Source: a virus. From it: DNA of 52,506 nt. Position numbers and translations under genes: made by a program. Location of the stretch: the UHGV virus genome UHGV-0041832; one strand, written 5' to 3'. The notes beneath the pieces were generated by a model, which saw nothing but the letters and a program-made list of their open reading frames with translations, was not told the DNA's origin and did no database searches. Position 1 is the first letter of the stretch, and each line of letters starts with the position of its first letter. Positions 43,380 to 43,807 of this stretch are shown piece by piece.

Positions 43380-43634
43380 TCACTTATGAGTGCCTTTCAC
43401 GCCACATAACTTGTTATAGGCATGGTGCTCAACAATTAACCAAACCTTCAAATCTTCGCTAAACAGCCTCCAATCAAGATTGATATCCATTTTGTATCCG
43501 TAACCGTCGCGTAACTTTTTGGGGTAAACTTCTTTTCTCAGAAAGGCTTTAAGTAATTCCTTACCTTTCTTGATGATCCGGTCCTGTGCGTTTTTCTGTG
43601 CTTTCAGATTTCTGTCAATCGCTACCAGTTTCAT
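43380..43634 (-). CDS. Small basic protein, possible RelE/YoeB-like toxin (moron)
   Basis: 84 aa; segment QDRIIKKGKELLKAF loosely resembles YoeB DKRIVKKINELIKD; opposite strand between tape measure and tail M. Confidence 0.35.
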   Translation of the reverse strand: MKLVAIDRNLKAQKNAQDRIIKKGKELLKAFLRKEVYPKKLRDGYGYKMDINLDWRLFSEDLKVWLIVEHHAYNKLCGVKGTHK

Positions 43635-43651
43635 AACTCACCCCATCATCC

Positions 43652-43807
43652 TTAGTTAAGTGCCTTCAGGAAGAAGTCCCGGTATTCATCTTCTTTCGCA
43701 TTCATCATGAATTGACCGTATTTGAATGCGTCGTCGAAACCCTTAACGATTGCTATTTCCACTTGTTCGAATGCGTTATTTAGCATTACTACTACATAGC
43801 GTTTCAT
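43652..43807 (-). CDS. Possible 51-aa partner protein upstream of 43380..43634 gene
   Basis: Hand-translated MKRYVVVMLNNAFEQVEIAIVKGFDDAFKYGQFMMNAKEDEYRDFFLKALN; strong SD GAAGGAGG; 17 nt from downstream gene start. Confidence 0.35.
   Translation of the reverse strand: MKRYVVVMLNNAFEQVEIAIVKGFDDAFKYGQFMMNAKEDEYRDFFLKALN

Follow-up and report, generated by a model that had tools for sequence, protein, structure and literature searches.

Background

Among the described type II toxin-antitoxin systems, YefM-YoeB, RelBE, DinJ-YafQ and HigBA carry toxins that are ribosome-dependent mRNA endonucleases of the RelE superfamily. PaaA2-ParE2 belongs to a three-gene module, paaR2-paaA2-parE2, of E. coli O157:H7 prophages, in which PaaA2 is a minimal antitoxin for ParE2 without a DNA-binding domain. 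A RelE/YoeB-like fold is also used by a phage without any antitoxin, in the RegB endoribonuclease of phage T4. The tail-region morons of lambdoid phages (lambda lom and bor, HK97 gp15) are small cargo among late genes, with a promoter-like element and a terminator of their own. Here we describe a two-gene cassette on the minus strand (43380-43807) of the virus genome UHGV-0041832, a stretch of 52,506 nucleotides which we refer to as the window and which is a prophage of E. coli from the mEp021/mEpimmI group. The cassette encodes proteins of 51 and 84 amino acids (aa). Our favoured reading, held tentatively and at a little below even chance, is a toxin-antitoxin-like operon of two genes on the opposite strand of the mEpimmI prophage tail block.

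We favour this reading because a basic 84-aa protein is paired with a mildly acidic 51-aa protein, because the two genes are linked and both are under purifying selection, and because of the layout and signals of the locus, including promoter hexamers that are conserved around a variable spacer, along with the family and fold of the 84-aa protein. A toxin-like annotation of the latter is already present in Pfam and RefSeq, thus we do not present the toxin-like nature of the protein as the discovery of a new kind. The pair itself is not treated in the literature that we found on PF24732 and on ParE-like toxins in phages, nor in the mEp021 paper and its supplements.

Results and discussion

Two genes under purifying selection in the tail block

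The list of open reading frames (ORFs) in the window holds two on the minus strand at this site, one of 51 codons at 43652-43807 and, after a gap of 17 nt (43635-43651), one of 84 codons at 43380-43634, just as proposed in an earlier reading of the DNA made from its letters (hereafter the sequence-only reading). They occupy the slot between the tape measure gene (780 aa, 40951-43293) and a tail M-type gene (117 aa, 43975-44328), inside the tail-gene block but on the opposite strand. The sequence-only reading had named the same site, and the RefSeq annotation of the identical stretch in E. coli M1/5 agrees, as the flanking genes there are those of tape measure and phage tail proteins. An 801-nt region of the locus is 100% identical in the strains M1/5, FAH and MS 21-1 and 81-84% identical in the phages mEp021, mEp554, mEp010, mEp044, mEp013 and mEp515, while MagusPhagus is partly 96% identical.

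For a comparison we assembled 45 close loci, drawn from complete E. coli genomes, IMG/VR contigs and records of phages. Both genes were present with a full-length 84-aa ORF in 42 of the 45, which gave 30 distinct allele pairs, and dN/dS was calculated by the Nei-Gojobori method over 435 sequence pairs with dS near 1. The 51-aa gene has a ratio of 0.045 and the 84-aa gene one of 0.084; both ORFs are real genes under strong purifying selection. That the two ORFs are chance reading frames in a non-coding spacer would fit their small size and nothing else. The dN/dS values exclude this explanation, which is further contradicted by PHROG family matches for both proteins, a Pfam match for one of them and ribosome-binding sites kept among relatives, and we give it practically no chance.

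Some database entries hold a longer form of the first gene, of 68 aa. We rejected this form, since the extension is out of frame in the window and begins inside the -10 element described below, and since the 51-aa start has a conserved ribosome-binding site.

Family and fold of the 84-aa protein

The 84-aa protein is very basic, as the sequence-only reading had remarked, with a pI of 9.87 and 20 lysines and arginines against 10 aspartates and glutamates. It matches the Pfam family PF24732 ParE_like ('ParE-like toxin domain') over residues 19-75 with 45.3 bits against a cut-off of 24.4 (E 9e-12), as well as PHROG 1525 (function unknown), and its RefSeq name is 'ParE family toxin-like protein' (WP_000779577.1). 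PF24732 was the sole match in a Pfam scan at E<=10, with no YoeB, RelE, YafQ or HigB model found, and scans of NCBIfam and PADLOC gave no match. The PADLOC defence models matched neither this protein nor the 51-aa protein at E<=10. Searches of PDB sequences by phmmer and by profile found no toxin, and an hhalign comparison with the verified E. coli YoeB aligned only the long helix, at a non-significant probability of 0.85%. By sequence the protein does not belong to the canonical ParE_toxin/RelE, YoeB_toxin, YafQ_toxin or HigB-like families. A word-seeded homologue search returned only relatives of at least 73% identity, and a second seeded search reached down to 26% identity with all relatives carrying PF24732. 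As a profile search of 1.84 billion representative proteins found just 10 proteins at E<=1e-3, we regard the branch as narrow. A scan of one genome per species found no relative.

The AlphaFold2 (AF2) model of the 84-aa protein, built with 22 sequences (pLDDT 86.8), consists of a hairpin, a long helix, four strands, the first of which is a two-residue bridge, and a short C-terminal helix. The first N-terminal helix of the canonical fold is missing from the model and a short beta hairpin stands in its place. The best PDB matches were HigB, RelE, YafQ and YoeB; Foldseek placed YoeB and YafQ in its top ranks with probabilities up to 0.97, but with an E of 0.07 and a TM of 0.49. The modelled core of a helix and an antiparallel sheet puts the protein in the RelE/ParE toxin superfamily at the level of predicted fold, and we conclude that it is a real but divergent member, somewhat nearer to the RNase members than to ParE. 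The sequence-only reading had seen a short stretch here with a loose resemblance to YoeB/RelE toxins, and counted a lack of fold similarity to known toxins among the outcomes that would speak against its toxin-antitoxin proposal. Since HigB, RelE, YafQ and YoeB match, that outcome does not apply, and the place of the protein in the toxin superfamily is supported as well by the PF24732 match and the RefSeq name.

Across the 22 sequences, which extend down to 26% identity, K40, L41, R56 and H70 do not vary at all and K23, G44 and N74 hardly do. Aligned by collinear secondary structure, and not by superposition, these residues would map to the segments of YoeB that hold E46, R65 and H83/Y84.

Two further readings concern this fold. 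The toxin might be a true ParE-type gyrase poison within the same toxin-antitoxin architecture, as the Pfam and RefSeq names imply. We find this quite unlikely, as the RNase-type members score higher in both structure searches, the conserved His/Arg/Lys set is present and the ParE family name appears to rest on structural resemblance only, no experimental paper having been found. Alternatively the fold could be domesticated or inert, i.e. the RelE/ParE scaffold is kept with toxicity lost and another role taken up (RNA or protein binding, regulation), and the pair is ordinary cargo. The missing canonical first helix, the absence of a canonical toxin family match, the modest structural scores and the viability of partner-less variants (see below) would all agree with such a protein. 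Against it stand the dN/dS of 0.084 and the invariant K40, R56 and H70 together with the nearly invariant K23, G44 and N74, which resemble an active site or a defined binding surface, and a very basic charge as expected of ribosome- or nucleic-acid-directed toxins; hence we consider an inert fold improbable.

Expression signals of the cassette

The hairpin AACCCCGG-N7-CCGGGGTT at 43298-43320 is an inverted repeat with T-rich tails and a terminator-like score on both strands. It is common to the tape measure gene on the plus strand, whose stop codon lies just before it, and the cassette on the minus strand, and it corresponds to the bidirectional terminator which the sequence-only reading had located at 43300-43327. 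The intercistronic spacer (43635-43651, minus strand) contains the purine-rich ribosome-binding stretch GGGGTGAG at 43644-43637, a GGGG(TGAG) stretch 6 nt ahead of the ATG of the 84-aa gene. In related loci the spacing is 17-21 nt, or 20-24 when the stop codon is counted. Ahead of the 51-aa gene the sequence reads as a Shine-Dalgarno element, GAAGGAGG (43814-43821, minus strand), 6 nt from the ATG, in line with the strong signal pointed out in the sequence-only reading, and its purine block is kept across 36 distinct upstream sequences.

Further upstream lies a candidate sigma-70 promoter (43848-43876, minus strand) made up of TTCACA (43876-43871), a 17-nt spacer and TATATA (43853-43848). When the 36 distinct upstream sequences were aligned, the blocks TTCAC(A/T) and TGTATA(T/C)A were conserved, 17 nt apart, around a variable spacer. 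We infer from this alignment that the hexamers are the promoter of the cassette, with a start near 43841. A consensus promoter scan called no minus-strand promoter; it missed the candidate because the -10 hexamer ends in a base other than T. With a gap of 17 nt, one promoter-like element and one terminator, the cassette has the architecture of a type II system, a small partner gene adjacent to the toxin-type gene and probably transcribed together with it.

A copy of the dispersed motif TACAAAATGG (43878-43887, minus strand) is situated 1 nt upstream of the -35 hexamer. Allowing up to one mismatch, we count 21 matches to this motif in the window where 5.9 would be expected, a number that none of 100 shuffles reached; exact copies are found at 5800, 9786, 10743, 18177, 18242, 40873, 40899, 43487 and 43878. 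It often stands 1 nt upstream of -35-like hexamers, and is placed alike beside the -35 of the strong early promoter at 10743 (TTGACT-17-TATATT) and beside the -35-like hexamer of another opposite-strand cassette at 40899. Another such position is found some 80 nt upstream of the gene (9869-10516) for the CI-like repressor, and inverted pairs are found at 18177/18242, 24464/24490 and 40873/40899. This distribution makes TACAAAATGG a candidate binding site for a phage regulator; the mEpimmI paper defines no operators.

Beyond the promoter, a perfect palindrome, ATCATTGT-N-ACAATGAT, unique in the window, spans 43899-43915. It is degenerate in UMNK88, LSU61 and mEp554 and only partly conserved in relatives, hence we rejected it as an autoregulatory operator. 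The 25-nt repeat CTTTACGCGCTTCTACGCGAAAAAT (43919-43943, minus strand) recurs at 31537-31561, i.e. two matches with none expected. Read on the minus strand as (G/C)TTTACGCGCTTCTACGCGAAAAAT it is able to form a small CGCG hairpin, and it is strongly conserved among relatives. On the plus strand, the portal-like gene (31562) and tail M (43975) each have a copy just upstream of them; the repeat probably belongs to the plus-strand late transcript and not to the cassette, and may be a signal in that transcript. The dispersed motif and the repeat on this flank, both brought up in the sequence-only reading, are thus real, the repeat being 25 nt long. An Rfam scan of 43200-44050 found no RNA family and thus gives no hint of an RNA antitoxin from a described family.

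Linkage of the two genes and the proposed mechanism

Among complete E. coli genomes, 35 have the 84-aa gene, and 34 of these have the 51-aa gene too; both are always single-copy, chromosomal and adjacent. The two genes are neighbours in 42 of the 45 close loci, and each of the seven isolated phages of the group has the pair. Every E. coli genome with a good match to this type of tape measure (at least about half of the query, at least 73% identity) is among the carriers of the cassette, hence we take the pair to be near-universal in the mEpimmI group. The slot between tape measure and tail M always starts with the pair, followed by 0-3 variable small ORFs, with none in the window. In the strains PAR and Ecol_244 the 84-aa gene is truncated and the 51-aa gene kept, and databases also hold several truncated 84-aa products; decay in this direction is one that a toxin-antitoxin pair tolerates.

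In the toxin-antitoxin reading, the cassette would most likely be driven by its own sigma-70 promoter (TTCACA-17-TATATA) and transcription would stop at the hairpin common with the tape measure gene, giving one mRNA from which both cistrons are translated. The 84-aa protein would be an effector that arrests growth, for which a ParE-type gyrase poison is less likely than a RelE/YoeB/HigB-type endonuclease that cuts mRNA in dependence on the ribosome. The 51-aa protein would bind and temper it, possibly as a minimal antitoxin without DNA-binding domain by analogy with PaaA2 for ParE2. The role of such a module would then likely be abortive-infection defence or prophage retention.

The proposed partner is a mildly acidic protein (pI 5.14) whose sole family match is phrog_29810 (PHROG 29810, function unknown) at E 9e-40. 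Pfam, NCBIfam, PADLOC and PDB sequence scans gave no match, and all homologues found are at least 75% identical. AF2 predicts one long helix, but as the five models disagree (pLDDT 46-83, pTM 0.42) we treat the prediction as uninformative.

Evidence from natural variants and distant relatives

Several observations weigh against an antitoxin role for the 51-aa protein and against a toxin-antitoxin pair as such, and we gather them here. The pair is near-universal in the phage group, not patchy. In UMNK88 and in two IMG/VR contigs (L027 and L030) the 84-aa ORF is intact and the 51-aa gene precisely absent, the strong ribosome-binding site of the leader being fused directly to the 84-aa ATG, and a blastn search of UMNK88 found no second copy of the 51-aa gene. 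An intact toxin gene would be accompanied by an obligatory partner in a type II system, and at these loci it is not. Note that the partner-less variant is rare: one of the 35 genomes has it, and two of 39 viral contigs. These loci have the junction in common, but the flanks of L027 and UMNK88 differ, which suggests one old and persistent deletion. Further, the extents to which the two genes have diverged show no correlation (r 0.12 for dN, 0.26 for dS); between the window and MagusPhagus the 51-aa protein is identical and the 84-aa protein only 67% identical, and there is free reassortment of the alleles. The usual toxin-antitoxin pattern is also reversed, in that conservation is higher in the 51-aa protein than in the 84-aa protein. 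The Pfam, NCBIfam, PADLOC and PDB scans showed no known antitoxin or DNA-binding domain in the 51-aa protein, and it is no recognisable member of an antitoxin family with DNA-binding domain and operator. Autoregulation is unsupported as well, since the palindrome upstream is not conserved.

The distant PF24732 relatives add to these points. They belong to virulent Sortsnevirus phages and the jumbo phages RaK2 and fHe-Yen9-04, where they sit in same-strand arrays of small genes. When we looked for a conserved partner among them, the upstream neighbours were unrelated to the 51-aa protein and to each other. Only in Sortsnevirus is the PF24732 homologue followed by a conserved acidic protein. There the homologue, of 73 aa, and an acidic protein of 92-98 aa are separated by 5 nt (Escherichia phage Sortsne, 1989-2512; Klebsiella phage IME279, 1986-2491), and the acidic protein is 50% identical between the two phages. 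The upstream neighbour is not conserved in Sortsnevirus; a downstream partner in a HigBA-like order is conceivable there.

The sequence-only reading had called the layout typical of type II toxin-antitoxin or small defence modules. This stands for the toxin side, with a downstream protein of a toxin superfamily in an operon with its own terminator, but finds no support for the antitoxin side and is in part contradicted there by natural variants, given a 51-aa protein without match to an antitoxin family, partner-less loci, uncorrelated divergence and relatives with unrelated neighbours.

The same observations lend themselves to a different explanation, in which the 84-aa protein is a stand-alone phage effector that needs no antidote, e.g. 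an RNase cutting mRNA early in infection or some other translation modulator, and the 51-aa gene is independent or modulatory and merely shares the transcript. Intact 84-aa genes without the 51-aa gene, the lack of co-variation and free reassortment of alleles would be expected from this, and so would a gene found in essentially every mEpimmI-type prophage and phage examined and PF24732 relatives in virulent Sortsnevirus and in the jumbo phages RaK2 and fHe-Yen9-04 without a common partner. The TACAAAATGG element, which the cassette promoter has in common with the strong early one at 10743, would be consistent with immunity-controlled early expression, although the regulator of the shared motif is only presumed. 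On the other hand, 42 of the 45 loci keep the two genes linked, with the spacer conserved at 17-21 nt, and cargo expressed in lysogens usually has the arrangement seen here, directed against the late operon and with a terminator to itself. Truncated 84-aa genes are also tolerated in prophages, hence the gene is not essential for prophage carriage. Taken together we consider a stand-alone effector the main rival, possible if rather unlikely.

A more specific proposal is that the PF24732 proteins form a branch of the RelE/ParE fold peculiar to phages, which needs no antitoxin and serves the phage programme, e.g. as an RNase on mRNA early in infection. Here it would be a near-core mEpimmI gene under the control element of the main early promoter (TACAAAATGG beside the -35), with the highly conserved 51-aa protein as a new kind of small modulator and not an antidote. 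We can only offer this as a speculation and an unlikely one. The reading that we continue to favour, tentatively, is the toxin-antitoxin-like operon.

Other features of the window

The other opposite-strand cassette mentioned above lies at 39779-40823 on the minus strand, between the tail chaperone and tape measure genes, and likewise has two genes. One product, of 219 aa, carries a VasI domain (PF11319; 'TagO' type VI secretion-associated in RefSeq), the other, of 124 aa, has a weak match to DUF7738. Its promoter region (40860-40910) reads TACAAAATGGcTTTACT-17-TATAAG, the same architecture as in the 51/84-aa cassette, and here TACAAAATGG forms an inverted pair 16 nt apart.

A 14-bp palindrome, GTGAT(A/C)NN(G/T)ATCAC (the GTGATMNNKATCAC palindromes), has 19 matches with up to two mismatches against 5.4 expected. 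The best copies are at 14800-14813, 18196-18209 and 24444-24457, and others are found at 44420 and 51893. The palindrome is usually located within 10-20 nt of a copy of TACAAAATGG, and no copy precedes the 51/84-aa cassette. These palindromes look like an operator set for a dimeric repressor. About 105 undetermined bases (N) at 10547-10651 separate the terminator of the repressor gene from the early promoter, and operators in that interval are therefore unreadable.

In the window, tail M and tail L are separated by only 124 nt (44329-44452); in the relatives M1/5, UMNK88 and mEp554 this slot is taken by another opposite-strand cassette, with an antirepressor-like gene of the KilAC-domain kind among its genes. 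A 23-nt element, AGCGTGACGCAGATCACAAAATG, is found at 44417-44439 and recurs at 51890-51912. The J-like tail fibre gene (46378-51348) contains, at 49402-50246, imperfect repeats in tandem whose period is 108 nt (36 codons), in agreement with the J repeat region described in the mEpimmI paper. Two G+C hairpins at 51347-51397 and 51465-51515 follow this gene, whose product is a tail tip fibre of 1656 aa; the first hairpin is followed by a run of about 28 T, unusually long for a terminator tail.

The gene at 31562-32953 on the plus strand, at the position expected for the portal, after a terminase-like ORF and before a minor head protein, has a counterpart in M1/5 that is labelled 'anti-CBASS protein Acb1 family protein' in RefSeq. 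This label may be a misannotation or refer to a fused domain.

Comparison with known systems

Compared with the toxins YoeB, RelE, YafQ and HigB, the 84-aa protein has no sequence-level relationship (hhalign below 1%, no Pfam model), and its model has a short beta hairpin where these toxins have their first helix. The 51-aa protein differs from the antitoxins of YefM-YoeB, RelBE, DinJ-YafQ and HigBA, as it is not of the Phd/YefM, RelB, DinJ or helix-turn-helix kind and has no DNA-binding domain, and unlike in these systems the partner is dispensable in natural variants. From the PaaA2-ParE2 module the cassette differs in having no third regulator gene. The ParE structures of PaaA2-ParE2 and ParDE match the 84-aa model less well than the RNase members, and the 51-aa protein is not recognisably related to PaaA2 or to any solved protein. 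If the cassette is a toxin-antitoxin or abortive-infection module, it would add a new minimal antitoxin family and another prophage-encoded defence.

The true family of the 84-aa protein is formed by the PF24732/PHROG 1525 proteins of Sortsnevirus (gp07), RaK2 and fHe-Yen9-04, whose predicted fold is the same (TM 0.71-0.75), with the K..L, R and H..YN positions kept. These differ from the window in their virulent or jumbo phage background, their unrelated neighbours and the absence of a 51-aa homologue, and none was found to have been experimentally studied in the literature that was searched.

Like the lambdoid tail-region morons, the cassette is small cargo among late genes; it has a promoter-like element and a terminator of its own, is opposite to or independent of late transcription, and lies in a slot that serves as a cargo site with its 0-3 extra ORFs. 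Unlike morons, the pair is not sporadic but near-universal in the mEpimmI group, being present in all members examined, and in contrast to lom, bor and gp15 its products are cytoplasmic and toxin-like and not membrane proteins.

For the 84-aa protein as a stand-alone RNase, T4 RegB is the precedent on this fold in a phage, although RegB is about twice as long and is absent from the structure-search matches listed. If the fold is used without antidote here, the 84-aa protein would be the second example besides T4 RegB of a RelE fold in the control of phage gene expression, and a warning against labelling every protein of RelE/ParE fold as the toxin of a toxin-antitoxin system.

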